DNA of 59,256 bases, from the IMG/VR virus record IMGVR_UViG_3300037510_000134; one strand, given 5' to 3'. The translations under genes and the position numbers were made by a program. Positions 24,007 to 53,331 of this stretch are shown here, piece after piece. The notes beneath the pieces were generated by a model. It saw nothing but the letters and a program-made list of their open reading frames with translations, made no database searches and had not been told where the DNA came from. Origin of the DNA: a virus (taxonomy: Duplodnaviria; Heunggongvirae; Uroviricota; Caudoviricetes). Position 1 is the first letter of the stretch; each line of letters opens with the position of its first letter.

Positions 24007-26040
24007 TTATACTTTCTCAGCCTTTATTTCGCAAACATCAGTACTACAATATCTTTCGCCCTCTGCGTCTGCTCCATTTAAATATGCATCATCCATATCA
24101 ATTGGTTGAAGCCTTCCTATATAACTACCATATTCTTCTTCAGAAATTTCTGTATATGGTTGTTGTTGATACACATCATTACCCATTGGTAGGAAGGAAA
24201 TAGTCTTAAGTTTTCCTTCATACATATTCAATACAGTTGGAACATATTCTGCCTCTAGTTTCTTGTCAAAGCTTATTGTGGCACTGACTGCATTATCCGC
24301 CCAATGTCTTTGAGCTTCTGAAGCTAGATTAATCTTTTCAAAAATTGATACTTCTTTTTCCCCGCGAACATTTGTCTCGATTGGGAAATAAACAACTACG
24401 GTATTACGTGAGACAACATCTTGTTCTACAGTGTATCCTGCGAGCATGAATTTAGGGACCATAGGGTCATCTGAGGCAAATCTAATGGCTCTTAAGTAAT
24501 GCTTTCCACCTGGAGGCCAATGCACACCGGGGGTTGCTCCTGACAATAAACTAACTGTTCCGCTCGGCTTGATACTTGTTGTCTTAACAGACTCACGAAC
24601 ACCAAGCCATTCTGAATATTCATGATCTCGCTTCTGGATTTCTTCATAGCCTTCATTCCACCATTCTCTTAGAGCTGGCAAACCGTGGGTGTCATAGAAA
24701 CCTGAAACGCCTGTAACGCTAGCTCCGATTCTACGATTTCTTTGCATCACTGCATTTGTACGATCCCAATGTGTACTCAAAAGTGTAATAGTTTTACCAT
24801 ACAAATAAGCAAATTTAAGAGTACGTAAAAAATCTTCCTTTGATTCTGCTCTATTAATATGTACTTCTACTAGCGTACAACATTCAAATGATTCTAATGT
24901 CTGTTCAGCGCAAGGATTGACTCCTGCTACCCGGCGATCTTTGTTGTTTGATGGATCTAGTAGCCGACCATATCCTCTAGCTGTATCTATCCAAATAAAT
25001 CCCGGCTCTCCATTTGTTGCAATAAGATTAGTAAATCTATCATAATCTTGGCCAACCTTAACCGACAATGTGTTATTAGACATCCAACCCCATCCAGGAT
25101 TTTCTGGGTCATAACTATTACGTTCTGGGAAGTATTCTGGGTTCTTTAGATTAATAAAATCTTCGTCATCGGGTTCGCCCAAACCAATCTCCGCGCTTCT
25201 GCGTACATTGCCGGCTACTACACAAGTACCAATCAGATTCATTAAATCTGCAATAAGTCTTGAACTTACAGTATTACCGATTTCCGACTCAAATATCTCT
25301 GTCATTTTATTGTGAATGTCGATAAGTGGTTGTGGCCCGCTGGCTGTACCTCCGAATCCACGAATGGGTTCGCCCTTTGGCCTAATATCATTATAGTCAA
25401 ATACTACATATTGTTGGTTAGGCTTCATATAAGAATTAATCAACAATCTCACTGAATCAGCCCAGCCCTCACGTGAGTCAGGAATCCGATAGGTAACGTT
25501 GCATTCGTTAAAATCACCATCTGGCTGTTGAATGATGATGCCCTTATCCTTGCCTTTTGTATCCCAGCCAACACCAACACCTAGCATTAATGCATCCATA
25601 ACCCAAGAAAATACAAAGCCTGGATCGTTTCTATCAATATCTGCGGTAGAAACAAAGGCACAGTTTTGTAGAGCCGCTCCGCCGTTTTCACCTTTCATAA
25701 CAAACTCGGTACCCATCATCCACAAACCACGACCTGGTGGAGTCCACTTAAATTGAAACATTCTATCGTAAGCTTCCTGAGCTGATGCCTGAGCCTTACG
25801 ATCGTTCCAAGGTAGACGATTAGCTTTTACATAGTCTTTCTGGATAGAGTACATGCCCTCAATTACTCGCTGACATACTTCCCACCATTTCTCTTTAGTT
25901 CCATTTTCTTTAATTCTAGAATATGTTCTTATAAATGTTAGTTCACCAATAGAGTTTCCACCAGCATCTTTAAAGCCCCAATCAACATCCCTATCTTTGT
26001 ACTTCTCGATAAATGCCTCGGGGAGGCTAAAGCTCATCAA
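24007..26040 (-). CDS. nrdJ: Class II (adenosylcobalamin-dependent) ribonucleotide reductase
   Basis: WTPPGRGLW, LQNCAF, NVRRSAEI, SNN, NPCAEQTL, TSIKPSGTVS, C-terminal CSTDVC; monomeric RTPR-like; no intein seen. Confidence 0.95.
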   Translation of the reverse strand: MMSFSLPEAFIEKYKDRDVDWGFKDAGGNSIGELTFIRTYSRIKENGTKEKWWEVCQRVIEGMYSIQKDYVKANRLPWNDRKAQASAQEAYDRMFQFKWTPPGRGLWMMGTEFVMKGENGGAALQNCAFVSTADIDRNDPGFVFSWVMDALMLGVGVGWDTKGKDKGIIIQQPDGDFNECNVTYRIPDSREGWADSVRLLINSYMKPNQQYVVFDYNDIRPKGEPIRGFGGTASGPQPLIDIHNKMTEIFESEIGNTVSSRLIADLMNLIGTCVVAGNVRRSAEIGLGEPDDEDFINLKNPEYFPERNSYDPENPGWGWMSNNTLSVKVGQDYDRFTNLIATNGEPGFIWIDTARGYGRLLDPSNNKDRRVAGVNPCAEQTLESFECCTLVEVHINRAESKEDFLRTLKFAYLYGKTITLLSTHWDRTNAVMQRNRRIGASVTGVSGFYDTHGLPALREWWNEGYEEIQKRDHEYSEWLGVRESVKTTSIKPSGTVSLLSGATPGVHWPPGGKHYLRAIRFASDDPMVPKFMLAGYTVEQDVVSRNTVVVYFPIETNVRGEKEVSIFEKINLASEAQRHWADNAVSATISFDKKLEAEYVPTVLNMYEGKLKTISFLPMGNDVYQQQPYTEISEEEYGSYIGRLQPIDMDDAYLNGADAEGERYCSTDVCEIKAEKV

Positions 26041-26437
26041 TATAGTTCAATTCCTTTCTTATGTATATCATAGCCTTATAAAATCCAATGTAACTAGCAG
26101 CGTTATGCATTTTATCTACGTTATCGTCAAGAAGGCCAATGGCTGTATTGCAGCGCGGGCAAAGTAATCCTCTTAGACATTTTCCACAAGTTTTTGATCC
26201 TGGACAACAGCTATGATCATGGTCAACACAAAGCGTACCTACTTCTTCTGGTGTCGCCGGGCAAATAGCACAGTGGCCATTTTGTTCTTTTAGCTTCTCT
26301 AAATATTGCCCTTTAGTTATTCCATATCTATCGAAAAGCTTTACATCTACTGAGCAATCTCTACACTCTTTACGTTTAGAATTAAAACCTTCTAATGGAA
26401 CATCCTCTCCACACATATAGCAATTTTTTGTTGTCAT
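26027..26437 (-). CDS. Endonuclease VII-like (His-Me finger) nuclease, possibly a homing endonuclease
   Basis: CAIC...LCVDHDH...RGLLCPRCNTAIG motif plus N-terminal CxxC pairs; TGG-TATAAT just upstream. Confidence 0.88.
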   Translation of the reverse strand: MTTKNCYMCGEDVPLEGFNSKRKECRDCSVDVKLFDRYGITKGQYLEKLKEQNGHCAICPATPEEVGTLCVDHDHSCCPGSKTCGKCLRGLLCPRCNTAIGLLDDNVDKMHNAASYIGFYKAMIYIRKELNYIDEL

Positions 26438-29363: not shown

Positions 29364-29381
29364 TGCGTTATTGGAATGAAT

Positions 29382-29543
29382 ATGAGTAAAAAACAATTTG
29401 CTTATTGTGATGTATGTTGTGAACAAAGAGAGTTAAGTGAAAATGGAACTTTTAAGTCTCACAAAACATATTTAGACGGTGGTGACTGGTCTCAGCCATA
29501 CAGAACGTGCCCCCGGTCAAATAAGAAACCAGGAAGAGGATAA
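29382..29543 (+). CDS. Zinc-binding microprotein (CxxC..H..CxxS family)
   Basis: Translated by hand: MSKKQFAYCDVCCEQ..FKSH...RTCPRSNKKP, 53 aa. Confidence 0.65.
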   Translation: MSKKQFAYCDVCCEQRELSENGTFKSHKTYLDGGDWSQPYRTCPRSNKKPGRG

Positions 29544-29549
29544 ATAAAC

Positions 29550-30245
29550 TTGATTGAATTATATAATGGCAAGGGATATGTTAAGTTAATAGATCATTTA
29601 GGTAGCGATTTGAGTTTTACTAAAGCCGCCCGCGCGTCCTTTGCGAAAGATTCTCCTGTATGGAATACTAGGGAGGAAAAACTACTTTCATTTCTTATTA
29701 AGAATGAGCATTTTAGTGTTTTTAGACATGCAGCTGTAACTTTTCAGATTAAAGCGCCACTCATGGTAGCTCGGCAACATTGGAAGTATACTGTGGGGTC
29801 TGCACATCTTGATGATCAAAACGGCTGGAATGAAACCAGTAGGAGATATGTCTCAGTAGATACTGAATTCTATATCCCAGGATATGATCAATGGCGTTCA
29901 AAACCTGAAAATGCAAAGCAAGGATCTGGATCTCCAGTTGATTCTGGTCTAGGATTGACAATGAGTATGGCCTTAGAAGAACATATCGCAGAAAGCGTTT
30001 CACTATTTGAAGCAGCCTTGGCGGAAGGCATAGCTACTGAACAAGCTCGACTATTCCTCCCTGCATTTGGTCTTATGCAATATTATCAATGGACAGTATC
30101 TGTTGCTAATTTAATTCATTTCTTCAAGGAGCGACTAGCTCATGATGCGCAGCTTGAAATGCAGGAATTGGCTCAAGGTGTCTACAAGTTGACACAACCT
30201 CTCTATCCTGCTACATTCAAGGCACTTGGATTGGAGATCGAATGA
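29550..30245 (+). CDS. thyX: FAD-dependent thymidylate synthase
   Basis: EHFSVFRH, PLMVARQ, WNETSRRY, EQARLFLP, ERLAHDAQLEMQ. Confidence 0.93.
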   Translation: MIELYNGKGYVKLIDHLGSDLSFTKAARASFAKDSPVWNTREEKLLSFLIKNEHFSVFRHAAVTFQIKAPLMVARQHWKYTVGSAHLDDQNGWNETSRRYVSVDTEFYIPGYDQWRSKPENAKQGSGSPVDSGLGLTMSMALEEHIAESVSLFEAALAEGIATEQARLFLPAFGLMQYYQWTVSVANLIHFFKERLAHDAQLEMQELAQGVYKLTQPLYPATFKALGLEIE

Positions 30246-30421
30246 ACGTGCAAGAGCTTCTGGAAAGTCAGATTTCACAGGCTGAAAAAGAGCTAAAGAG
30301 ACTTGAAAAGGAAGAAGAGTTAGCGACTTATATGTTACAAAAAACTCATAATAATCGTGTGGATGCTGAATTACATCTCGCAGAATTGCAAGAAGCGCTT
30401 GATCTTTGGATTGATCAATGA
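30242..30421 (+). CDS. Small coiled-coil protein
   Basis: Translated by hand, 59 aa: MNVQELLESQISQAEKELKRLE..; ATGA overlap. Confidence 0.65.
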   Translation: MNVQELLESQISQAEKELKRLEKEEELATYMLQKTHNNRVDAELHLAELQEALDLWIDQ

Positions 30422-30558
30422 GCTATAAAGTAGATGTTTATATAGATGGTCTTTGGGTAAAGACTTATTATGATGTTCCCGGCGATTCTGAAATGGACGC
30501 TCAAGAACATATTGAAGAAACAATGGCGTTAGATTTCACAGTGGAAGAAAATGATTGA
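30418..30558 (+). CDS. Hypothetical microprotein
   Basis: Translated by hand, 46 aa: MSYKVDVYIDGLWVKTYYDV..; overlaps both neighbours. Confidence 0.6.
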   Translation: MSYKVDVYIDGLWVKTYYDVPGDSEMDAQEHIEETMALDFTVEEND

Positions 30559-30778
30559 TAAACCTATTTACCGACAACTGCAAGCTGCTGTCGGGGATGC
30601 TGATGGACAGCTAGCCATTGCGATTGTTCTAGACGAACTGACATCAATCTTTGAAATGTTCGCAGAAGAAATAGAATGGCTTTACGAAGAAGATCCAGAG
30701 AACGATAATATGTCAGCTGGATATAGGCTAGCTGCTAGTTGGTGCCAATGTTGGTCGGAGGAGGTTAAAAATGTCTGA
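30551..30778 (+). CDS. Hypothetical protein
   Basis: ORF track; coupled. Confidence 0.65.
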   Translation: MIDKPIYRQLQAAVGDADGQLAIAIVLDELTSIFEMFAEEIEWLYEEDPENDNMSAGYRLAASWCQCWSEEVKNV

Positions 30779-30971
30779 ATTAAAAGAACCTAGTCCAAGC
30801 GTGGAACAGCTTTTAAGTATAGTAGTTGTTCAGAATCAAAGGGTATATGATGTCTTGTTAGCTTTGCTTAGTCAGCAAAGTGAAGAAGTGGCTAGAAATC
30901 TGGTAGAAGTTCACGAACGCATGGATAATATCAGCCCCGCGCCATATGTAGTAAGTGATAATGATGATTGA
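30771..30971 (+). CDS. Hypothetical protein
   Basis: RBS GGAGG. Confidence 0.7.
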   Translation: MSELKEPSPSVEQLLSIVVVQNQRVYDVLLALLSQQSEEVARNLVEVHERMDNISPAPYVVSDNDD

Positions 30972-31146
30972 TTATAGTAGCATTCAAAGTTCAATTGAAC
31001 GCGCTGTGTTTGCTGCTCAAGAAGAACTAGCCTTTCTGCAAAGAGTAAAGGCAGATCAAAATATAATAGATTCTTTACAGGCCGACATTCTTAATTTGAA
31101 TGAAGCTTCAGAGATTGTTTGGATGTATGCGGAGCTTGATAAGTAA
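30955..31146 (+). CDS. Small coiled-coil protein
   Basis: ORF track; helical heptads. Confidence 0.65.
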   Translation: MIMMIDYSSIQSSIERAVFAAQEELAFLQRVKADQNIIDSLQADILNLNEASEIVWMYAELDK

Positions 31147-31418
31147 TGTTTGATGAACTAGATGAGCAGTATAGGTATTGTATATATTGTAAGGCTGACT
31201 GCTGGGTTGAGCCAGGAAATCAGGTACATAATAAGGACTGCCCTATTAATACTGGATTATTTCCTATTGACAGAGCTATGTTAGTTACCAATGCTTGCTG
31301 TATGTATTGTCCTATTATATTTGAAGAAGGCGATTTCTTTATGCTAGTTAATGACAATGAAGTCGTATGTGTGGGATGCGCAACAGCAATTGAATTATTA
31401 GGAGTTGAATATGAGTGA
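31146..31418 (+). CDS. Cys-rich zinc-binding protein
   Basis: CIYC..H..DC, CMYC and CVGC motifs. Confidence 0.7.
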   Translation: MFDELDEQYRYCIYCKADCWVEPGNQVHNKDCPINTGLFPIDRAMLVTNACCMYCPIIFEEGDFFMLVNDNEVVCVGCATAIELLGVEYE

Positions 31419-31773
31419 CTTTTTAAAGGACGCTATTAAGTCCGCCCGCGAGACTGCGGAAAGCCTTATTTCTACACTAGAAAAGCTTGTAGAAGATGGA
31501 AAACCTGCTGATACAAAACCTTCAAGCGATGAACCCACCGAAGAGGACTTTAAGTCTCTTTATGAGGAATACAAGAATCGCTGTGAAGCTGTAAGTGATG
31601 AATTGGAAGAAGCTCAAGAAGCCCTAAAGCTATTCCTTGACGGTGAAGTTAGTAAGACATTCGTCGTTCCTGAAGAAAAGCAAAAGGCTCTAAAACAATA
31701 TGAAGTAGAGACATTTTGGGCGGTTACAGAAACCGGCTCAATGCAGTTAACAGTTAAGCAAAGGAAGTTGTGA
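31405..31773 (+). CDS. Hypothetical coiled-coil protein
   Basis: RBS AGGAG; start probably ATG 31411. Confidence 0.7.
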   Translation: MNMSDFLKDAIKSARETAESLISTLEKLVEDGKPADTKPSSDEPTEEDFKSLYEEYKNRCEAVSDELEEAQEALKLFLDGEVSKTFVVPEEKQKALKQYEVETFWAVTETGSMQLTVKQRKL

Positions 31774-31774
31774 A

Positions 31775-31927
31775 ATGAGTAAAAGAGACGCAACATGTCC
31801 ATCTTGCGGCAAACCATTTAAGATTGAAGGCGTTGGTGCAACAATTCCCGAGCACAAGATTAATGTGGTGCGCGGAGGTAAGCCTGTGCCAGTAAAATGT
31901 CCAGGAAGTGGAAAGAATCCTAACTAA
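31775..31927 (+). CDS. Zinc-binding microprotein (CxxCG..H..CxGSG family)
   Basis: Translated by hand, 50 aa: MSKRDATCPSCGK..IPEH..KCPGSGKNP. Confidence 0.75.
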   Translation: MSKRDATCPSCGKPFKIEGVGATIPEHKINVVRGGKPVPVKCPGSGKNPN

Positions 31928-32079
31928 TGCTTGGTATTGGACAATGCCCGGTTTGCGGCAATCCCAATATAGTTTTAGTAAAGTCTCAAAATGGGGCAGT
32001 ATTAAAGGAACATAAAAGAAGAGGTAGGCTTATGTCTGGAGCAACAACTTGTGAAGGTTCCGGCCGCAAGCCTAAATGA
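31927..32079 (+). CDS. Zinc-binding microprotein (CxxCG..H..CxGSG family)
   Basis: Translated by hand, 50 aa: MLGIGQCPVCGN..LKEH..TCEGSGRKP; TAATG overlap. Confidence 0.75.
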   Translation: MLGIGQCPVCGNPNIVLVKSQNGAVLKEHKRRGRLMSGATTCEGSGRKPK

Positions 32080-32355
32080 ATGAGGTGTATTATGGGTTGG
32101 AATTCATGCACTCCGTATTTTGATGATACTGTGAGAGCTGCGAAAGAGGTTATTGAAGATTTATGCAAAGGTGATTCCCGATTCGACGAACATGAAGCAC
32201 TTCTAAGAATTGCTAAGCCATTAGCAAATCATCTAGATGACGGGGATTGGGATGTTCATAGTGAGTCTGAGTTCTGGGATGAATTGGGGCCAGATCTATG
32301 GCCGGAAGAGTACAAAGAATATCTATATTGGAAAAGAGTAGATGAACTTGACTGA
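32080..32355 (+). CDS. Hypothetical protein
   Basis: ORF track; MGWNS..; start may be the internal ATG. Confidence 0.7.
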   Translation: MRCIMGWNSCTPYFDDTVRAAKEVIEDLCKGDSRFDEHEALLRIAKPLANHLDDGDWDVHSESEFWDELGPDLWPEEYKEYLYWKRVDELD

Positions 32356-32499
32356 AGAAGAATTAGTTAAAGATTTAATTGAAGAATTTAAGATTAAGCG
32401 AGATTACTGGCAACAGATAAGTCTTGACCGTGCGTGGGGTATTCAAGAATGTCTCAATCACCTTTATTCTTATCAATCTATTCTTAAGGCTCGAACCTC

Positions 32500-32889
32500 G
32501 TGAATTATACTTCATTCGATATACTAGATATACCATATGTAGTAGATGGCGATACATTGTGGGTTGTAAGACGTTGTATTATAGGTCAAGTGGATTCTGG
32601 TAAGATAGTTTATGAAGATAATTCTGGTGGAGTATCCTGCCGTCTTTATGACGGTTTGAATGGCTTGAATACCCCAGAAAAGCATGGGCCTAGAGGAGAT
32701 TTAACCCAGTGGGGCAAGGCTCGACAAGATCTTTCCGATTGGGTAGCTAGTCAAGATCTAGCAAATTTGGAACTACGTGTTTATAAAAAGGATAGTTTTG
32801 GTAGACTCTTGTCTAATGTATGTTACAAGACTGGATCTGAAACAGCTGTCAATGTCATGCTAAATAAAGGCTGGAAGCCTTACAAATAA
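32500..32889 (+). CDS. Staphylococcal-nuclease (thermonuclease)-like protein
   Basis: VVDGDT, LNTPE and KDSFGRLL motifs. Confidence 0.85.
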   Translation: MNYTSFDILDIPYVVDGDTLWVVRRCIIGQVDSGKIVYEDNSGGVSCRLYDGLNGLNTPEKHGPRGDLTQWGKARQDLSDWVASQDLANLELRVYKKDSFGRLLSNVCYKTGSETAVNVMLNKGWKPYK

Positions 32890-32907
32890 TGGAAAGTTAA
32901 TGTTATA

Positions 32908-33045
32908 ATGTCTGTAATTGGGCCAAGAGTAACATGTCATAGGTGTGGCGCTAGGTTGCCTATAGATGGCGATGGTAGGTTGCCAATACATAATGGTAAA
33001 AATACCAATGTTACTTGTATTGGTAGTAGGGAGAAAGCAAAATAA
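32908..33045 (+). CDS. Zinc-binding microprotein (CxxCG..H..CxGS family)
   Basis: Translated by hand, 45 aa: VTCHRCGA..LPIH..TCIGSREK. Confidence 0.72.
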   Translation: MSVIGPRVTCHRCGARLPIDGDGRLPIHNGKNTNVTCIGSREKAK

Positions 33046-33191
33046 TGGCTGAGCTTGGAAGATGCAGGGTATGTGGTTTGGTTTGGGTAGTAGAGAATGG
33101 TAAAATTGGCAATCATTATAAGGTTAATATATTAGTGAAACTTCAAAAGAAAAGGGGATTTTGTCACGGTTCTGGACAGGAGGCTAAGTAA
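33045..33191 (+). CDS. Zinc-binding microprotein (CxxCG..H..CxGSG family)
   Basis: Translated by hand, 48 aa: GRCRVCGL..IGNH..FCHGSGQE; TAATG overlap. Confidence 0.75.
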   Translation: MAELGRCRVCGLVWVVENGKIGNHYKVNILVKLQKKRGFCHGSGQEAK

Positions 33192-33325
33192 TGGAAACTG
33201 CTAGATGCCCTAAATGTGGCAATCCTAATGTTGGATTAATCAAAGACGGTTCAGAATACTTTTTTAAAAAACACAATAATCAAAAAGGTACTATGTGCGC
33301 CGGAACATTCACTAAATCAAGATGA
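33191..33325 (+). CDS. Zinc-binding microprotein (CxxCG..H..CxGT family)
   Basis: Translated by hand, 44 aa: ARCPKCGN..FKKH..MCAGTF; TAATG overlap. Confidence 0.75.
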   Translation: METARCPKCGNPNVGLIKDGSEYFFKKHNNQKGTMCAGTFTKSR

Positions 33326-33465
33326 GCGCAACAGCTAGATGCATAAAATGTGGTAAAGAATTTACCGTCTACGTTAGAAATAATAAGGCATATTTTAGAC
33401 CACATACTAGAGCTAAGAAAAACACTGTCGAAGTATGTCCAGGATCTGGTATGGAGGTGAGATAA
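33322..33465 (+). CDS. Zinc-binding microprotein (CxxCG..H..CxGSG family)
   Basis: Translated by hand, 47 aa: ARCIKCGK..FRPH..VCPGSGME; ATGA overlap. Confidence 0.75.
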   Translation: MSATARCIKCGKEFTVYVRNNKAYFRPHTRAKKNTVEVCPGSGMEVR

Positions 33466-33624
33466 ATGGAATCATTAGAGTCTTTGCTAAAGAGATCAAC
33501 AAAGGTATATGGTCAAATACAAGCGGAACAACAGAAGTCTAACCCAGATAGTAGTAAACTAAAACAGCTAGAAAAACAATACGAAGACATACAAGATGCA
33601 ATAAAGAAGATTGCTAAGGGGTAA
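33466..33624 (+). CDS. Small coiled-coil protein
   Basis: Translated by hand, 52 aa; RBS GGAGGTG. Confidence 0.7.
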   Translation: MESLESLLKRSTKVYGQIQAEQQKSNPDSSKLKQLEKQYEDIQDAIKKIAKG

Positions 33625-33625
33625 T

Positions 33626-34162
33626 ATGAGATTTCATTACGATTGGGAATTTAAGGAAGATGGCGTAACCATTGAACCTATTAGCTTAGGAATGGTTGAT
33701 GATTATGGTAAAGAGCTATATTTAATCTATGTCCCGGCGATCAATAGTTTCAGGAGACGCCAAGCAAAAGGAATACTAGATTCAACAGACCTATGGTTGC
33801 AAGACAATGTTTTTAACCATATTTCATTTCAAGATGAAGATGATTTTGGATGTGCTTCACAAGATGAAATGGCTGCGGCGGTTTATGATTTTATTTGTGA
33901 AAGCTCAGAAGTCCATGATGATTGGAATATAGAGCTTTGGGGGTATTTTGCCTCCTATGATCATGTTTGCTTATCACAGCTATTTGGTAGGATGATTGAT
34001 TTACCTGCCCCTATGCCAATGTATACTAATGAACTCATGACTATTAGAAAAGGTAGAGCTAAGCCAGCGCGACCGGCCGATTTGCCACAACATCACTCAC
34101 TGATGGACGCTAGATATCAAAAAATGATCTACGATGAGTGGTCAAAAGACGCCCCTCAATGA
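33626..34162 (+). CDS. DEDD-family 3'-5' exonuclease (Rv2179c-like)
   Basis: FHYDWEFKEDG..ISLGMV, LWGYFASYDHVCLSQLFGRMIDLP, HHSLMDARY; start set to ATG 33626. Confidence 0.88.
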   Translation: MRFHYDWEFKEDGVTIEPISLGMVDDYGKELYLIYVPAINSFRRRQAKGILDSTDLWLQDNVFNHISFQDEDDFGCASQDEMAAAVYDFICESSEVHDDWNIELWGYFASYDHVCLSQLFGRMIDLPAPMPMYTNELMTIRKGRAKPARPADLPQHHSLMDARYQKMIYDEWSKDAPQ

Positions 34163-34207
34163 CTGCTTAAGTATGCAGCTCAGCACCGTGCTACTAATTT
34201 GCAGGAT

Positions 34208-34235
34208 TTGCAACCAAATAGGTGAGTGATATACT
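34208..34235 (+). promoter_or_regulatory. sigma70-type leaderless promoter
   Basis: TTGCAA-N16-TATACT with TG extension; the ATG at 34242 is 6 nt downstream. Confidence 0.65.
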
Positions 34236-34241
34236 AAATTC

Positions 34242-34520
34242 ATGAATATTTCTAGTGAGATTTTAGATTATACTTTTGAATTGCTTTCTATTCATCAACC
34301 CGCCACTATTGAGGGTACATACGATGGTGAAAACGGAACAGTTACTATGACATTTGTTGGTGATGACAGCAACTATGCTCTTGATTTTACATATTCAGGT
34401 GTTGAATATAACGAATTTAGAGAAATTGTCATTCAAACAGCGGGACGTCTGGTAGCTGCCCACAATACTAAGATGGGAATACCTAGTAGGCAACCATTTA
34501 TTGATAGTGTAACGGAGTAA
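34242..34520 (+). CDS. Hypothetical protein
   Basis: ORF track; leaderless promoter. Confidence 0.7.
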   Translation: MNISSEILDYTFELLSIHQPATIEGTYDGENGTVTMTFVGDDSNYALDFTYSGVEYNEFREIVIQTAGRLVAAHNTKMGIPSRQPFIDSVTE

Positions 34521-34523
34521 AAG

Positions 34524-34958
34524 ATGGAATATGATTGGGAAACGCGTGGTCTGGAAGATATGATCGGCGCGAAGATTAATAATGTAGCTATGAGTACAGA
34601 ATATCTAGCGTTTGACACTGACAAGGGGACTTTTGGATTCTGTGTAGTAGGTGACTGCTGCTCTTGGAGTTATTTTTATGATTTTCATGGCGTACATAAA
34701 TTGTTGGTGAATGGTCCTGTAGTATCGGCGGAAGAAATTCCACTAGAAGCAGATGATTACACCGGTAGTGAATGTGTACAGGCATATGGTTATAGAATAA
34801 TTACCGAAAGCCCGGTCTGGGGAGAACAAAGTTCAGTTTTTTCATTTAGAAACGAGTCTAACGGCTACTACGGTGGCTGGATGGAACCAACTAATAGAGA
34901 TTGGACTGAATTCTTTCAGAACCACGAACTGAATAAAGATGTTGTGACACTGGACTGA
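34524..34958 (+). CDS. Conserved phage hypothetical protein
   Basis: GDCCSWSYF and FRNESNGYYGGW motifs; RBS GGAG. Confidence 0.8.
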   Translation: MEYDWETRGLEDMIGAKINNVAMSTEYLAFDTDKGTFGFCVVGDCCSWSYFYDFHGVHKLLVNGPVVSAEEIPLEADDYTGSECVQAYGYRIITESPVWGEQSSVFSFRNESNGYYGGWMEPTNRDWTEFFQNHELNKDVVTLD

Positions 34959-34977
34959 GGGGTTTGCGCCCCTCTTT
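34957..34977 (+). terminator. Probable terminator
   Basis: GAGGGG-TTTGCG-CCCCTC followed by TTT. Confidence 0.55.
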
Positions 34978-35154
34978 CCTGCGTGGTAGACTTTACGCGA
35001 TGGGAGGGATCTACAATTAGCGAACAGAATTATATACACATGAATACGGGGTCAAACAGACATGAGCGAAGACATGGACGTACCTTCACAGGGAGACACT
35101 ACATCATTCCTCGCGAGTACCGCGAGGAAGCCACAAATACACCATTCAGAAAAG

Positions 35155-35340
35155 ATGAGTCTGACCTGGAATCATCCAACGAAGGGTGAGATTACAGAAG
35201 TACTTTGTGAACCCCATTATGAAGAGGTACTATTTTCACTGAAAAAACTGGGTATGGGTTACACGGGCAGTAAAGCAAATGGAATTTGCTTACGATGTAT
35301 TTATGTGGGATTTGATATCAAAACTTGGATTGGAAAATAG
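35155..35340 (+). CDS. Hypothetical protein
   Basis: MSLTWNHPTKGEITEVLCEPH..CLRC; 3' part of track ORF 35062..35340; start uncertain. Confidence 0.55.
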   Translation: MSLTWNHPTKGEITEVLCEPHYEEVLFSLKKLGMGYTGSKANGICLRCIYVGFDIKTWIGK

Positions 35341-35341
35341 T

Positions 35342-35491
35342 ATGACTGGTGAATGTGGTCATTGTGGTACACGTCAAAAGGTTTTTGGCGGCAAAGTTGC
35401 TAATCACAAAACAGAAATAATTGTAAAAGGCAAAGTAGAATATAGAACATGCAGTGGCAGCGGTCGACCGCCAATGCCTCCAAGAAGTTAA
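35342..35491 (+). CDS. Zinc-binding microprotein (CxxCG..H..CxGSG family)
   Basis: 49 aa: MTGECGHCGT..VANH..TCSGSGRPP (3' part of track ORF 35279..35491). Confidence 0.78.
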   Translation: MTGECGHCGTRQKVFGGKVANHKTEIIVKGKVEYRTCSGSGRPPMPPRS

Positions 35492-35507
35492 TAGATAAGG
35501 AATAGAC

Positions 35508-35888
35508 ATGGCAGTACAAGATTTTCACTTAGGAGACATCCTATCAATTACGACTGGACGCTTAGTAAGTCTAAGACATATGAGTGGTGTATATGGAATC
35601 TTGAATTTCATGACTCAAGATGATCTGTATACTCATCAATTAATCATCGCAGGTCCCATTATGAAGGACCCAATTTTCGAACAACATCCCTGGCTACAAG
35701 AAGTTGTCGTAGCTGATGATTTTGAGTTCACCAACGATCATCATGTTTATACCTGGCTAGATGATATGATTAATTTGTATGGTCAATATCATCCTCTAAA
35801 GTCAAGAGAGGATTTATGGCAGGAACATGATATGATGGAAGACCTTATTAAGATCATGTCTGGGGAATATAAGCCAGGAGATAAATAA
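35508..35888 (+). CDS. Conserved phage hypothetical protein
   Basis: FHLGDILSITTGRLV..YTHQL; RBS AAGGA. Confidence 0.8.
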   Translation: MAVQDFHLGDILSITTGRLVSLRHMSGVYGILNFMTQDDLYTHQLIIAGPIMKDPIFEQHPWLQEVVVADDFEFTNDHHVYTWLDDMINLYGQYHPLKSREDLWQEHDMMEDLIKIMSGEYKPGDK

Positions 35889-35967
35889 TGATAGGTGCTT
35901 TAATATTTGCAGTGATAGCACTCTGCCTGACGTTCATTGCTATTTATTATTTTGGAAGGATGTTTAG

Positions 35968-36174
35968 ATGAAGAGTGAAATTTGTCCTAAAACTGGTACA
36001 ACCAGACATGAAAGAAGTTGCTATAATCTAGTATTAGCATGTACTAGAGAACCACATGAGCATGTAGACAGTTGTCGTGATGATAAGGGCAAAAGAATTT
36101 GTGGCAAAACCCTACATGAGCACAGCAAAACTGGTCCGCCATGTAGAGTATTGGCAGGACCAACATGTCTCTAA
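35968..36174 (+). CDS. His/Cys-rich microprotein (HxH..C repeats)
   Basis: RHERSC, HEHVDSC, HEH..PC. Confidence 0.75.
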   Translation: MKSEICPKTGTTRHERSCYNLVLACTREPHEHVDSCRDDKGKRICGKTLHEHSKTGPPCRVLAGPTCL

Positions 36175-36394
36175 ATAAAATTTTCAAGCGATTTCTATGT
36201 CCAAAGTATAAGCCGATACAGATCCCCGACCTTATGGAATATTTCATTGCGTGACCACAGAATAACTTCTAGATCAATGGTTGTGGAAAAGTGGTTTGAC
36301 GCTAATGGTAGGGAATGGGGGCTATATACATGTGGTATTACAGGACATAATTGTAATAAGACTATAAAAATTAAAACAGGAAATAGGAGGTAAA

Positions 36395-36553
36395 ATGTTT
36401 GGTAATAGTCCACCAAAGGGCAAATGTCCTGGTTGTGGTAAAAGATTCACATTGGACCTTAAAGGTCAAAAGTGGGTTATACCTTCCCACAATCTCAGAA
36501 TAGCTGGTAAAATTAATCCAGAATGCCCAGGTACTGGTACAGTGATGCAGTAA
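36395..36553 (+). CDS. Zinc-binding microprotein (CxxCG..H..CxGTG family)
   Basis: Translated by hand, 52 aa: GKCPGCGK..IPSH..ECPGTG; RBS AGGAGG. Confidence 0.78.
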   Translation: MFGNSPPKGKCPGCGKRFTLDLKGQKWVIPSHNLRIAGKINPECPGTGTVMQ

Positions 36554-36744
36554 TGGACGAGCACAAGCATACCAAGAAATGTTGGAGGGCAGTTAAGAGT
36601 TGTCCAAAATATGAACACACTCATAATCCATCACGTCCAGGATCATGTTATCAAAGTGATGGCACTCTTAAATGTAAATTGTATCAACACAAACACAATC
36701 CATCAGAATGTTGGTCTACTGAATTATATTGTCCTTGGAGTTAG
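36553..36744 (+). CDS. His/Cys-rich microprotein (HxH..C repeats)
   Basis: EHKH..KC, EHTH..SC, QHKH..EC; start set to ATG 36553 (TAATG overlap). Confidence 0.75.
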   Translation: MDEHKHTKKCWRAVKSCPKYEHTHNPSRPGSCYQSDGTLKCKLYQHKHNPSECWSTELYCPWS

Positions 36745-36765
36745 TTAAAATTAAAAGGCAGCGGC

Positions 36766-36921
36766 ATGGCTAAAGAATATAGCTTAAATAAAGCAACTAC
36801 TGAGACGTATATTGCTACCTGCACAGTATGTGGAAGGCCATTTCGATCAGACGTGGCTGAAAAAGCTATACAAAAGGTTACTAATCATTATAGAGACAAA
36901 CATTCAATCATAATAGAATAA
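36766..36921 (+). CDS. C2H2-like zinc-finger microprotein
   Basis: Translated by hand, 51 aa: CTVCGRPF..NHYRDKH. Confidence 0.7.
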   Translation: MAKEYSLNKATTETYIATCTVCGRPFRSDVAEKAIQKVTNHYRDKHSIIIE

Positions 36922-36930
36922 GGAGATAAA

Positions 36931-37239
36931 GTGAAGAAATATCTAGCAGCGCGGCCCGCGCTAACGGCATGGATACAGTGGGATGGAACAAATATTGATG
37001 AATTTGAAAGCCTAACAGATAGTGATTGGGTTTATCTTAGATACTGCCCATTGTATTTCGTAAACAATAATGATGACCTAGAAATGCGACGACAAGATGA
37101 TGATGTGCTAGTTGACGTCTTACCTTTAGGTCATTGGTCAGGTGGACCTGGAAGTAAACTAGAGTCCCTAGAAAGTACTACAGATATGTCTGTAGTAGAA
37201 GGAAATGGACCATTCCATTTTGTCATTGCGGAAGATTGA
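36931..37239 (+). CDS. Hypothetical protein (QWDGTN family, copy 1)
   Basis: RBS AAGGAG; paralog of 39490..39795. Confidence 0.85.
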   Translation: MKKYLAARPALTAWIQWDGTNIDEFESLTDSDWVYLRYCPLYFVNNNDDLEMRRQDDDVLVDVLPLGHWSGGPGSKLESLESTTDMSVVEGNGPFHFVIAED

Positions 37240-37254
37240 TATACCGGGGAGATA

Positions 37255-37437
37255 ATGAGTTATAAAGTAGGAAGCAATCAAATAACATTACGCTGTGATG
37301 GTTGTGGTGACGCTAGATGTCAGACAGTAGAGTCTGACAATTTAAGCACCATGCGTGATCTTTGGTCAAAAGTTAGTCGTCAGGGATGGACTAGTACAAG
37401 TGAGCGTCATTACTGTCGGAGTTGTAGTAGAAAATGA
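37255..37437 (+). CDS. C4 zinc-finger microprotein
   Basis: CDGC...GW..HYCRSC. Confidence 0.75.
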   Translation: MSYKVGSNQITLRCDGCGDARCQTVESDNLSTMRDLWSKVSRQGWTSTSERHYCRSCSRK

Positions 37438-37622
37438 CAGTACAAGAACTCATAAATGAATTAAATAAACTAGTTAAACGAGATGTTCCTGTAATTCTAT
37501 TTGTTAGAAATAGAATACATGATAGTGAGGATTTCCCCGCGATAGATAAAGCGCAAGCCGTAAGACTTGGAACATTCGCCGGGGAAACGTGTATATTCAT
37601 CACTGATGGAATGGACTACTGA
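37434..37622 (+). CDS. Hypothetical protein
   Basis: MTVQELINELNKL N-terminus; ATGA overlap. Confidence 0.7.
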   Translation: MTVQELINELNKLVKRDVPVILFVRNRIHDSEDFPAIDKAQAVRLGTFAGETCIFITDGMDY

Positions 37623-37623
37623 T

Positions 37624-37860
37624 ATGAGCTATAGCGATTATCTGAATAAAATCTCAGCAGCTGAAAAACAGCTTACTTATCTAAATAATCGTATTCGCGG
37701 GGTAAACAAAGCTCTTGGTACAGCAGATAATAAGGCAGTAATCAAAGCTTTAAATGATGAGCTAAGATCATTACAGTCTGAAATTAATACTCAGAACAAA
37801 ATCATCAAAGAATCACGATACTTGATGCGCATGCTAGAAGAACGTGATAGAAATAGATAA
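37624..37860 (+). CDS. Basic coiled-coil hairpin protein
   Basis: MSYSDYLNKISAAEKQ..; 3' part of track ORF 37567..37860; paralog of the next gene. Confidence 0.75.
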   Translation: MSYSDYLNKISAAEKQLTYLNNRIRGVNKALGTADNKAVIKALNDELRSLQSEINTQNKIIKESRYLMRMLEERDRNR

Positions 37861-37889
37861 ATTAAATAACAAACTAAACTGGAGGAATA

Positions 37890-38117
37890 ATGACAACACG
37901 TAAAGAATATCAGAATCAGATTAACAAAGCTAAAGACGATATCGCATACTATACTAGACGTATTGCTTCTAACAAAAAGGCTATAGAAGGCTTTCAAGAC
38001 AAGGGAGCAGTTCAAATACTTAAGAATGAACTAGTTGACCTAAATCGACAATTGAAGGCAGCAGAAAAGCAACTTGCTGATGCCCAAAAGGGTCTTTCTA
38101 AGCTAAAGGACGAATAG
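37890..38117 (+). CDS. Basic coiled-coil hairpin protein
   Basis: RBS GGAGG; heptads. Confidence 0.8.
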   Translation: MTTRKEYQNQINKAKDDIAYYTRRIASNKKAIEGFQDKGAVQILKNELVDLNRQLKAAEKQLADAQKGLSKLKDE

Positions 38118-38125
38118 GGGGTACA

Positions 38126-38308
38126 ATGAGCGACTTAAGATCACAATTAACAAAGGTTATCAGTAGTCTTGGCCATCTATCTGCGGACTTAAATACTTGC
38201 ATAAATATTGGTGATAAAGAAGGTGCCAAGTATTATAATAAAAAGCTCAAAGAAGCGGATCGTGAAATAGAAAGACTTAAGAGAGAAATAGCAAAGCAAG
38301 GTGGGTAA
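38126..38308 (+). CDS. Small coiled-coil protein
   Basis: ORF track; heptads. Confidence 0.75.
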   Translation: MSDLRSQLTKVISSLGHLSADLNTCINIGDKEGAKYYNKKLKEADREIERLKREIAKQGG

Positions 38309-38426
38309 TACTAAAAGACCATGTCAAGTATGTGGACAATTACTACCATTAAAAAATGGTGCTGTACCTCAGCACAATGACAAGGGTATGTATTGCAGAG
38401 GAAGCCTTAAGCCTCCAAAGCAATAA
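38301..38426 (+). CDS. Zinc-binding microprotein (CxxCG..H..CxGS family)
   Basis: Translated by hand from GTG, 41 aa: RPCQVCGQ..VPQH..YCRGSLKPP. Confidence 0.72.
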   Translation: MGNTKRPCQVCGQLLPLKNGAVPQHNDKGMYCRGSLKPPKQ

Positions 38427-38441: not shown

Positions 38442-38678
38442 ATGTCAATAGGACCATGGAGCCGAGCAGAAATACTGTCGATGACTGACATTGCTACACT
38501 CAAGCATGTTGAAAAACAATACACCGCTGAAGCACGTGACATAGCAAAAAGAATAAATCGTATTAAAGACCCCAGCCCGGGGCAAATAGAGCGAATGAAT
38601 AAAGATGCCCGCGAATATCAGTCATTGTCAGTGGAGGCAAGCAGACGTATAGCTATACTTAAGGCGAGTAGTAAATAA
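38442..38678 (+). CDS. Small coiled-coil protein
   Basis: ORF track; coupled to the HD gene. Confidence 0.7.
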   Translation: MSIGPWSRAEILSMTDIATLKHVEKQYTAEARDIAKRINRIKDPSPGQIERMNKDAREYQSLSVEASRRIAILKASSK

Positions 38679-39295
38679 TGGATGAAATAGATTATCTTTG
38701 TGACCTAGCTTTAAAGTTTTCTGAAGTCAATAGAACCGGCGTGCAGTTACATAGCGGTGCACCAGAGTCGGACACTGATCACACAGTAATGTTAGGATGG
38801 GTTGCTTGTAGTTTTGCTGCCAAGCATTATCCAGAGTTAGATCAAGGGCTAATAGCACAATTTGCTTTAGTACATGACTCCCCCGAAATTTATGCGGGGG
38901 ATGTCCAAAGTCTAGGTATGGACGAAGAAACAGCTAAAAATAAAGCGCAGGCAGAACACGCAGCGGTAGATAGATTGCAGAGTGAATTTCATAAATACTC
39001 TTGGCTGACAGATACGTTGGCGCTATACGAACAACAACAATTACCAGAAGCTAGATATGTCAGAGCAATAGACAAAGTGCTACCTAAGATTGTAGCTTAT
39101 ATTAATGACTACAAATGGCACATGGAAAATTGGACGTGGCAATCTATAGAAAAAGTTTTAAATGATCAATATAAGCAAATCAGTCAATACGCCGGGGAGT
39201 TTACAAAACTGATGGAACTCTACACTCGAACAGCCTATAGAGTTATCAAAGATGTACACAGAAAGCAATTAAAATTAGACGGCGTAATAGAATAG
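38678..39295 (+). CDS. HD-domain phosphohydrolase (YfbR/5'-deoxynucleotidase-like)
   Basis: ESDTDH, ALVHDSPEIYAGD, EARYVRAIDK. Confidence 0.88.
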   Translation: MDEIDYLCDLALKFSEVNRTGVQLHSGAPESDTDHTVMLGWVACSFAAKHYPELDQGLIAQFALVHDSPEIYAGDVQSLGMDEETAKNKAQAEHAAVDRLQSEFHKYSWLTDTLALYEQQQLPEARYVRAIDKVLPKIVAYINDYKWHMENWTWQSIEKVLNDQYKQISQYAGEFTKLMELYTRTAYRVIKDVHRKQLKLDGVIE

Positions 39296-39489
39296 AAATA
39301 TAATGCAACCATTATGTAGACGGTGTGATAGGTTATATATGGCCGGGTATGCAGAAGGCCAAGCAGACACCGCACCATATAGTAGCTATAGAGAACATTG
39401 GATAGAAAGACAAAAAGAATTTCTCGCGGAAGCTGAAAGACTAACCTGTACATGTAAAACTTAAATCACAATAAATAGGAGGTGAAATA

Positions 39490-52906: not shown

Positions 52907-52929
52907 TGCAATTTCCTTTCATCGGTGCG

Positions 52930-53003
52930 TGCCCCTTAATGGATTCGAACCATTGACCTACGGTTTAGAAGACCGTCGCTCTATTCCGCTGAGCTAAAGG
53001 GGC
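52930..53003 (-). tRNA. tRNA-Arg (anticodon UCU)
   Basis: Canonical cloverleaf; ACGGT-CT-TCT-AA-ACCGT anticodon arm; GGTTCGAATCC T loop; CCA not encoded. Confidence 0.95.
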
Positions 53004-53234: not shown

Positions 53235-53258
53235 TTTTGTACCTTTCATTTGGGACCG

Positions 53259-53331
53259 TGCCCCCTGTGCGATTCGAACGCACACTGTACGGATTTTAAG
53301 TCCGGTGCCTCTGCCGTTGGGCTAAAGGGGC
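53259..53331 (-). tRNA. tRNA-Leu (anticodon UAA), short variable loop
   Basis: GCCCCTT/AGGGGGC acceptor stem; CT-TAA-AA anticodon loop; GTGCG-TTCGAAT-CGCAC T arm. Confidence 0.93.

Follow-up and report, generated by a model that had tools for sequence, protein, structure and literature searches.

Why should one tailed phage carry ten versions of the same cysteine- and histidine-containing microprotein, and what might these proteins bind? The question is raised by a 59,256-nucleotide stretch of viral DNA, part of a tailed-phage contig (IMG/VR record IMGVR_UViG_3300037510_000134, Caudoviricetes), which was analysed over its whole length and is called the window below. An original prediction, made by reading the letters alone, had pointed out ten short open reading frames (ORFs) with the motif CxxC(G)..H..CxG(S/T). 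All ten are present at the places given for them. They lie on the plus strand between positions 29376 and 38426, encode 41–55 amino acids (aa) and have in common CxxC(G), one invariant His and CxG[ST], which is replaced by CPRS in copy 1 (Table 1). Sequence comparison identifies the ten ORFs as genuine, anciently diverged paralogues of one mini-domain, for which zinc binding is strongly implied and a role in contacting nucleic acid is tentatively proposed.

The ORFs had been described as lying mostly below the ORF cutoff, but this cutoff belonged to the reader's own list. Copy 7 has an exact match in a 130,080-bp metagenomic contig from SRR12692787, the source contig, and nine of the ten copies are among the public gene calls for that contig, the only one missed being that with a GTG start at 38301. 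The count covers the 59-kb window, and ten is the minimum for the phage.

In the alignment of the ten copies (alignment A1) five positions never vary, namely the start Met, the CxxC cysteines, the His and the last Cys, and the Gly following CxxC and the Gly of CxG occur in at least 90% of the sequences. The strict pattern C..CG-x8-30-H-x6-30-C.G[ST] has nine matches in the six-frame translation of the window, all of them on the plus strand between 31.8 and 38.4 kb. The original prediction was to fall if the motif arose equally often in shuffled ORFs: none of 600 shuffled versions of the 28–42 kb region (300 mononucleotide and 300 triplet shuffles) contained a match, and even a looser pattern gave a mean of 0.007 per shuffle. 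One match to a loose motif on the minus strand (26195–26365) was rejected; it lies inside a gene called as Endonuclease_7 on the source contig. A family hidden Markov model (HMM) was built from nine copies and 66 outside relatives, leaving out the divergent copy 1. Run on the 59 kb, this model found exactly the ten copies, copy 1 included, at E ≤ 3e-10, the next candidate being a half-match that we did not count (borderline relative in Table 1). A profile search of 1.84 billion representative proteins returned 210 relatives at E ≤ 1e-3. The pairwise identity between paralogues is 22–41%.

Very short ORFs of this kind could in principle be fortuitous or untranslated. Here this is hardly credible in view of the shuffling result, the database relatives, the purifying selection on orthologues described below and the organization of the genes. 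As had been reported, the copies are coupled by overlapping stop and start codons, three times as TAATG (at 31925, 33043 and 33189, joining copies 2/3, 4/5 and 5/6) and once as ATGA (at 33322, copies 6/7). A purine-rich, Shine-Dalgarno-like stretch precedes most copies, and copy 9 has a strong GGAGG ribosome-binding site. For copy 8 the public call uses an upstream ATG at 35279, which extends the protein to 70 aa and overlaps the preceding gene; we favour the start at 35342 because the relatives P0049, P0077 and P0099 begin 5–6 residues before CxxC.

Several copies could be traced individually into other phages. Copies 1, 2, 4, 5, 6, 7 and 9 each have an outside homologue whose score greatly exceeds that of any paralogue of the window (for copy 1, 216 versus 48). 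Two syntenic relatives, L001 (4.4 kb, 36% GC) and L013 (a 20-kb stretch of a 43-kb contig, 41% GC), have in common with the window a backbone of genes for ThyX, an exonuclease and an HD protein, with 60–78% protein identity. Copies 4, 6 and 7 are 65–69% identical to their L001 orthologues, with ratios of nonsynonymous to synonymous substitution rates (dN/dS) of 0.12, 0.24 and 0.28, which are rough values because dS is near saturation; the adjacent exonuclease gene, taken for comparison, gave 0.11. From these comparisons we conclude that the ten copies are under purifying selection as individually conserved genes, the dN/dS values being those of copies 4, 6 and 7. The claim that the ORFs are real genes of one paralogous family is thus borne out by the HMM, by the orthologues with dN/dS of 0.12–0.28 and by the 210 relatives.

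Family slots are gained, lost or replaced between relatives. Ten copies in the window compare with five in the 4.4 kb of L001 and, in L013, with four intact copies and one frameshifted copy. The slot of copy 5 is filled in L001 by a different family member. L001 has no copy in the copy-8 slot, between homologues of both flanking genes, and no copy-8 homologue was found in L013. The split copy of L013 (10150–10290), located between the copy-4 orthologue and the exonuclease gene, has CxxC in one frame and GH..CPGS in another, and represents either a pseudogene or an assembly error. L010, an IMG/VR relative with a 43% identical exonuclease, has no family copy within 6 kb of that gene. Copy 1 sits immediately upstream of thyX; its divergent type (CPRS/CPNS subtype) occupies the same place in the window (29376–30245) and in L013 (6714–7733), which suggests that the linkage is conserved.

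Conservation in the family was analysed over 75 sequences, numbered here on copy 7. The conserved positions are C7, P8 (41/75), C10, G11, a D/N-G turn at 20–21, H28, C39 and G41 (75/75), and further the hydrophobic residues at 14, 16 and 25, S/T42 (73/75), G43 and P46. The distance from CxxC to the His is mostly 13–14 residues, and that from the His to the last Cys is 6–24 residues in the family and 6–15 in the window copies. Each copy has exactly three cysteines in addition to the invariant His, copy 1 having one extra Cys, and the Cys-Cys-His-Cys positions do not vary in the 75 sequences. Zinc binding, which had been proposed from the motif, is strongly implied by these invariant three cysteines and one histidine and by the retention of the same four ligands in a circularly permuted form of the domain (see below).

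AlphaFold2 predicted copy 7 as an all-beta protein with a predicted local distance difference test score (pLDDT) of 87.6 and strands at 4–6, 13–19, 22–25, 29–32 and 35–38. This five-strand layout would place the His between two hairpins and the last Cys after the second hairpin. The model of copy 1 (pLDDT 74.7) has strands assigned only around CxxC, and its loop is uncertain. Among the predicted viral structures of BFVD the eight nearest neighbours of the copy 7 model, all uncharacterised proteins, had probabilities of 0.91–0.99 and template modelling scores of 0.61–0.76. Six of them belong to Mycobacterium phages Cooper, Gancho, Dylan, Bane2 and CRB2 and to Gordonia phage Dexdert; the other two are from Burkholderia phage BCSR52 and from an unnamed source. 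The prediction of a copy 7 homodimer with Zn reached a score of 0.15 (mark 0.42) and was used neither for nor against binding.

Searches of Pfam and NCBIfam with the copies gave nothing above threshold, and literature searches on the motif, on the names of PHROG families and domains of unknown function (DUF), and on zinc microproteins of actinophages found nothing on the family. In PHROGs, matches among the 75 members were to phrog_6601 (46 members, best E = 6.5e-11), phrog_5559 (16) and phrog_28080 (9). By these matches the domain corresponds to phrog_5559 and phrog_6601, which are listed there without function. Taken alone, the window copies matched phrog_6601 at E = 0.0013 (copy 2), 0.023, 0.029 and 0.13, and phrog_5559 at E = 0.035. 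The phrog_6601 model had no match in 14 control genomes. The HMM search of phage data that had been suggested with the original prediction was productive: a window-derived model matched proteins of phages Rem711, Aminay and Cooper at E = 2e-8 to 7e-6.

The motif order in these phages differs from that in the window. The phrog_6601 model has CxGSG at 2–11 and CxxCG..H at 16–40, and the same arrangement (CxGSG, ~12 residues, CxxCG, 13 residues, H) is found in Rem711 gp81 (L008), Aminay gp79 (L009) and the Cooper gp88/89 region (L020; positions 65425–65616 of the record, minus strand). All ten window copies, unlike phrog_6601, have the order CxxCG..H..CxGS. Judged by motif order, the window copies are circular permutants of the phrog_6601 type and fit phrog_5559 better. 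That the four ligands are the same in both orders speaks for one metal site that ties the two chain ends together. Proteins of the Cooper type are present in 53 phage records, where they are annotated as hypothetical or with doubtful names such as 'RDF protein'. These names, and the 'HNH endonuclease' features that overlie the permuted form, are probably annotation artefacts.

The searched genomes of the cultured phages (Cooper, Rem711 and Aminay) have one or two domains each, compared with ten genes in the window. Fused forms were also found: two or three tandem repeats, joined by a conserved Gly/Pro-containing linker, make up proteins of 90–125 aa, and two to four domains occur inside proteins of 340–555 aa (examples are P0009, P0019, P0002 and P0057). 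The carriers of fused forms are phage contigs of 51–68% GC, and phage contigs carrying the family span 36–68% GC. Pfam searches with 20 longer domain-containing proteins identified no informative partner domain, and a word-indexed search for longer fused forms found none. Tandem fusions and stop/start-coupled genes look like two ways to deploy several modules together.

The window copies resemble classical zinc ribbons and the archaeal one-domain C(P)XCG microproteins (Haloferax HVO_2753 and HVO_0758, and Brz; PMC6562870, PMC10716476, PMC2253796) in their length of 40–60 aa, N-terminal C(P)xCG knuckle, beta-hairpin architecture, single metal site and occurrence as multi-member, stand-alone families. 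A classical zinc ribbon has two CxxC knuckles with four cysteines, whereas the window copies keep the first knuckle and have H...CxG[ST]G in place of the second. The best score to a Pfam zinc ribbon was 18.4 bits (Zn_ribbon_recom) against a cut-off of 25.3, all others being lower. Among zinc-ribbon-like microproteins the family is a variant not yet catalogued, and its expansion in this one phage is unusually large. Eukaryotic C2H2 arrays offer an analogy only: the CxxC-His spacing of ~12–14 residues and the tandem repeats with linker are alike, a PDB profile of such fingers aligns with the N-terminal half of the family at E ~2e-3, and Pfam zf-C2H2 matches below threshold (E = 0.099). The window copies have no second His at 3–5 residues and no helix in the all-beta model, and their fourth ligand is a distant Cys. 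C2H2 fingers are not homologous to the family by any test run.

Another origin to be considered is from HNH or His-Me-finger nucleases, the copies being degenerate zinc fingers spread by mobile endonuclease genes and having little function of their own. Copy 2 has weak matches to Pfam HNH (E = 0.12) and to an HNH PHROG (E = 0.14), and in cluster-B mycobacteriophages the permuted form lies beside or under features named 'HNH endonuclease'. However, the matches are far below threshold (13 bits versus 21.4) and confined to one copy, the AlphaFold2 model lacks the helix of the beta-beta-alpha-metal motif, and each paralogue is under purifying selection with a loop conserved within its orthologue group, all of which makes such an origin very improbable.

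The electric charge of the proteins offers a clue to function. All ten copies are basic, with isoelectric points (pI) of 9.0–10.2 (median 9.7), compared with a median of 5.45 for 22 other small proteins of the same block (Mann-Whitney p = 5e-4). The pI is above 8.5 also in 97% of the 66 outside single-domain members, so the charge is a property of the family and not an accident of one phage. A second clue comes from the loop between the His and the last Cys. The original prediction held that the ligands are fixed and the loops highly divergent. The ligands are indeed fixed; the loops vary from one paralogue to the next, but are conserved inside each orthologue group and unrelated only between groups. 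In the copy-1 group the loop is nearly invariant over 15 residues, and in the copy-9 group, which has eight members, it is strongly conserved. Such a pattern would be expected if the loop determined specificity for a stable target.

The reading that we favour, tentatively, is that the copies are zinc-stabilised, paralogue-specific binding modules that would contact nucleic acid, an RNA-binding variant being included. We lean towards nucleic acid because of the family-wide basic charge and the natural tandem multi-domain forms; the paralogue-specific loops fit nucleic-acid and protein targets alike. A more specific version, split modular nucleic-acid recognition, seems a long shot at present: every CCHC mini-domain would use its own hairpin to recognise a short DNA or RNA element, and tandem fusions or coupled genes would combine the modules, making the family a prokaryotic-virus counterpart of eukaryotic zinc-finger arrays.

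Small, basic proteins with such a site also bring the ribosome to mind. The ribosomal protein bL36 and its kin are very small and very basic, and have a Cys3His site in a beta-ribbon fold. By analogy, the copies might be RNA- or ribosome-associated microproteins that modulate translation or protect phage RNAs. Their length (41–55 aa), strong basicity and Cys3His site with the third ligand 13–14 residues after CxxC agree with this, as does the Rv2179c-like exoribonuclease gene, which directly follows the tandem array in the window, in L001 and in L013. The ligand order, in contrast, is Cys-Cys-His-Cys and not Cys-Cys-Cys-His as in bL36, no ribosomal protein of Pfam or NCBIfam was matched at E ≤ 1, and ten paralogues are hard to fit on one ribosome. 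We regard a ribosomal role as improbable.

The main competitor, held to be less likely than nucleic-acid binding, is that the copies are protein-binding inhibitors, the variable hairpin of each paralogue blocking a different host or defence protein and the expansion reflecting an arms race. The location of the copies in a plus-strand block of small genes beside nucleotide-metabolism genes, the paralogue-specific loops and the differences in copy number and slot content between close relatives are all compatible with inhibitors. So is an Acb5-like anti-defence gene (PF26761) in the equivalent block of L013 (11528–11755); tblastn found no counterpart of it in the window. Orthologues, however, have dN/dS of 0.12–0.28 with no sign of diversifying selection, and the same orthologue groups recur on phage contigs that differ in GC and gene content, which points to conserved rather than fast-moving targets. 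The near-universal basic charge would be odd for blockers of many unrelated proteins, and none of the ten copies matched a PADLOC family at E ≤ 0.1.

Several results weigh against nucleic-acid-binding zinc modules. A basic surface is equally suited to binding acidic proteins, and an expanded family with fast turnover in a small-gene block is typical also of anti-defence or host-takeover inhibitors. No fusion to a known nucleic-acid-binding or enzymatic domain was found. The AlphaFold2 models carry no metal, and we could identify no solved relative: a PDB profile search gave only generic CxxCG matches (E ≥ 2e-3), Foldseek of the copy 7 model against the PDB gave no match at E ≤ 1e-3, and a wide VIA-align search reached at best Z = 2.2, which for a 47-residue model is weak evidence of absence. 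Among the copies, copy 10 has only a weak ribosome-binding site and no clear orthologue among the outside homologues; lacking the latter, it is the copy for which expression as a gene is least certain. The earlier interpretation, a diversified scaffold that either inhibits host proteins or defence systems or binds nucleic acid, is partly supported, the function being one that we infer.

The copies might be built and work as follows. Each protein is predicted to consist of a CPxCG zinc knuckle, a beta hairpin ending in the invariant His, a variable hairpin of 6–15 residues and a C-x-G-S/T-G-x-x-P turn; Cys, Cys, His and Cys would hold one Zn2+. The motif suggests that CxGS is a degenerate second knuckle, with Ser/Thr at the place of the classical fourth Cys and the His recruited as ligand. 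The zinc core would serve as a rigid scaffold, and contacts would be made by the basic surface and the paralogue-specific His-to-Cys hairpin. Each paralogue would have one target, most likely nucleic acid (host or phage DNA or RNA), and the copies would act as small regulators or blockers. They would be expressed with the plus-strand block of small genes and nucleotide-metabolism genes, which we take to be early genes. Stop/start-coupled copies would be made in similar amounts and act like separated modules of the two- to four-domain fusions.

Table 1. Members of the mini-domain family and selected neighbouring genes in the window
Feature	Position	Strand	Length	Description	HMM E	Outside relatives
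Copy 1	29376..29543	+	55 aa from 29376	Alternative start 29382; divergent subfamily, CDVCC and CPRS	2.8e-10	Orthologues P0007 (38/51 identical), L013:6714-6863
Copy 2	31775..31927	+	50 aa	CPSCG..EH..CPGSG; stop overlaps copy 3 start as TAATG	6e-14	P0119, P0136, P0141
Copy 3	31927..32079	+	50 aa	CPVCG..EH..CEGSG; pI 10.2	2.5e-13	
Copy 4	32908..33045	+	45 aa	First in four-gene tandem array	3e-13	Orthologues L001, L013, P0043, P0130
Copy 5	33045..33191	+	48 aa	TAATG-coupled to copy 4	4e-13	P0064, P0052, P0070
Copy 6	33191..33325	+	44 aa	CPKCG..KH..CAGT; TAATG-coupled to copy 5	5e-11	Orthologues L001:273-404, P0135
Copy 7	33322..33465	+	47 aa	ATGA overlap with copy 6		Orthologue P0032 / L001:407-544 (65% identical)
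Copy 8	35342..35491	+	49 aa		9e-13	P0049, P0077, P0099
Copy 9	36395..36553	+	52 aa	CPGCG..SH..CPGTG	1.5e-14	Orthologue group including L001, L013, P0016, P0017, P0051, P0151, P0155
Copy 10	38301..38426	+	41 aa	GTG start overlapping upstream stop (GTGGGTAA)	2.4e-11	
Borderline relative, not counted	36766..36921	+	51 aa	CTVCG..NH..H; N-terminal half only	4e-3	Conserved in L001:4042-4191
ThyX gene	29550-30245	+		Plus-strand block		
Rv2179c-like 3'-5' exoribonuclease gene	33626-34162	+		Plus-strand block		
HD phosphohydrolase gene	38678-39295	+		Plus-strand block		

The window consists of two main gene blocks. The minus-strand block (1–27.5 kb) encodes a portal protein, an XkdF-type protease, a class II ribonucleotide reductase, a glycosyltransferase and large structural proteins. 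The plus-strand block (28–42 kb) encodes ThyX, the Rv2179c-like 3'-5' exoribonuclease, the HD phosphohydrolase and dozens of small ORFs. The GC skew changes sign at ~28 kb. Further downstream, between 44000 and 54000, the GC content rises from ~0.40 up to ~0.50, and two tRNA genes are located at 52929–53003 and 53258–53331. The class II ribonucleotide reductase (24007–26040, minus strand) has 91% identity to L016, the 3.4-kb contig JBMCYV010000063.1, which was binned into a metagenome-assembled genome of 'Candidatus Nitrosomirales archaeon' and is most likely a mis-binned phage fragment.

At the DNA level the window has no close relative among cultured phages: megablast of the 29–39 kb region and tblastn of a structural protein had no match among INPHARED phages, and an IMG/VR search with the portal protein returned no relative. 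The phage probably infects Actinobacteria. This assignment relies on family relatives and nearest structural neighbours from Mycobacterium, Gordonia and Streptomyces phages, on L014, which carries a copy-9 orthologue and encodes Lsr2 DNA-binding and GP24_25 tail-chaperone domains (which we take to be actinobacterial and mycobacteriophage features), and on Atlas neighbours that are mostly Actinomycetota; the Atlas cluster taxa of the family are likewise Actinomycetota.

The same plus-strand block contains at least six other small Cys/His-rich proteins of different types (31146–31418, 35968–36174, 36523–36744, 36766–36921, 37255–37437 and 39303–39464): a 9-Cys protein of 90 aa, two HEH/HKH-repeat proteins, a CxxC..H..H protein, a classical C4 ribbon and a 4-Cys protein of 53 aa. 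Three have L001 orthologues, and none of those tested matched Pfam to threshold. The protein at 36766–36921, the borderline relative of Table 1, has a weak match to a SprT-type zinc ribbon (17.2 bits against a cut-off of 28.1). Directly upstream of the four-gene array, a 129-aa protein (32500–32889, plus strand) has a weak staphylococcal-nuclease-like match (E = 0.006, below threshold).

The family was already known from PHROGs and from cultured actinophages, without function, and is absent from Pfam and NCBIfam; among actinophages its domain is widespread. What is new here is that it has expanded ten-fold, that there is evidence for old paralogues, each conserved separately and with a loop of its own, and that the domain occurs in permuted, split and fused forms. 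Among genes to which no function has been assigned, those for small phage proteins form the largest pool, and the relatives in cultured mycobacteriophages (Cooper and Rem711, host Mycobacterium smegmatis) make this family directly testable. The permutation, together with the split and fused forms, provides a clean case study of the evolution of a mini-domain. Modular binding of nucleic acids would make the proteins a new minimal unit of recognition; binding to host proteins would make them a panel of host-takeover or counter-defence factors.

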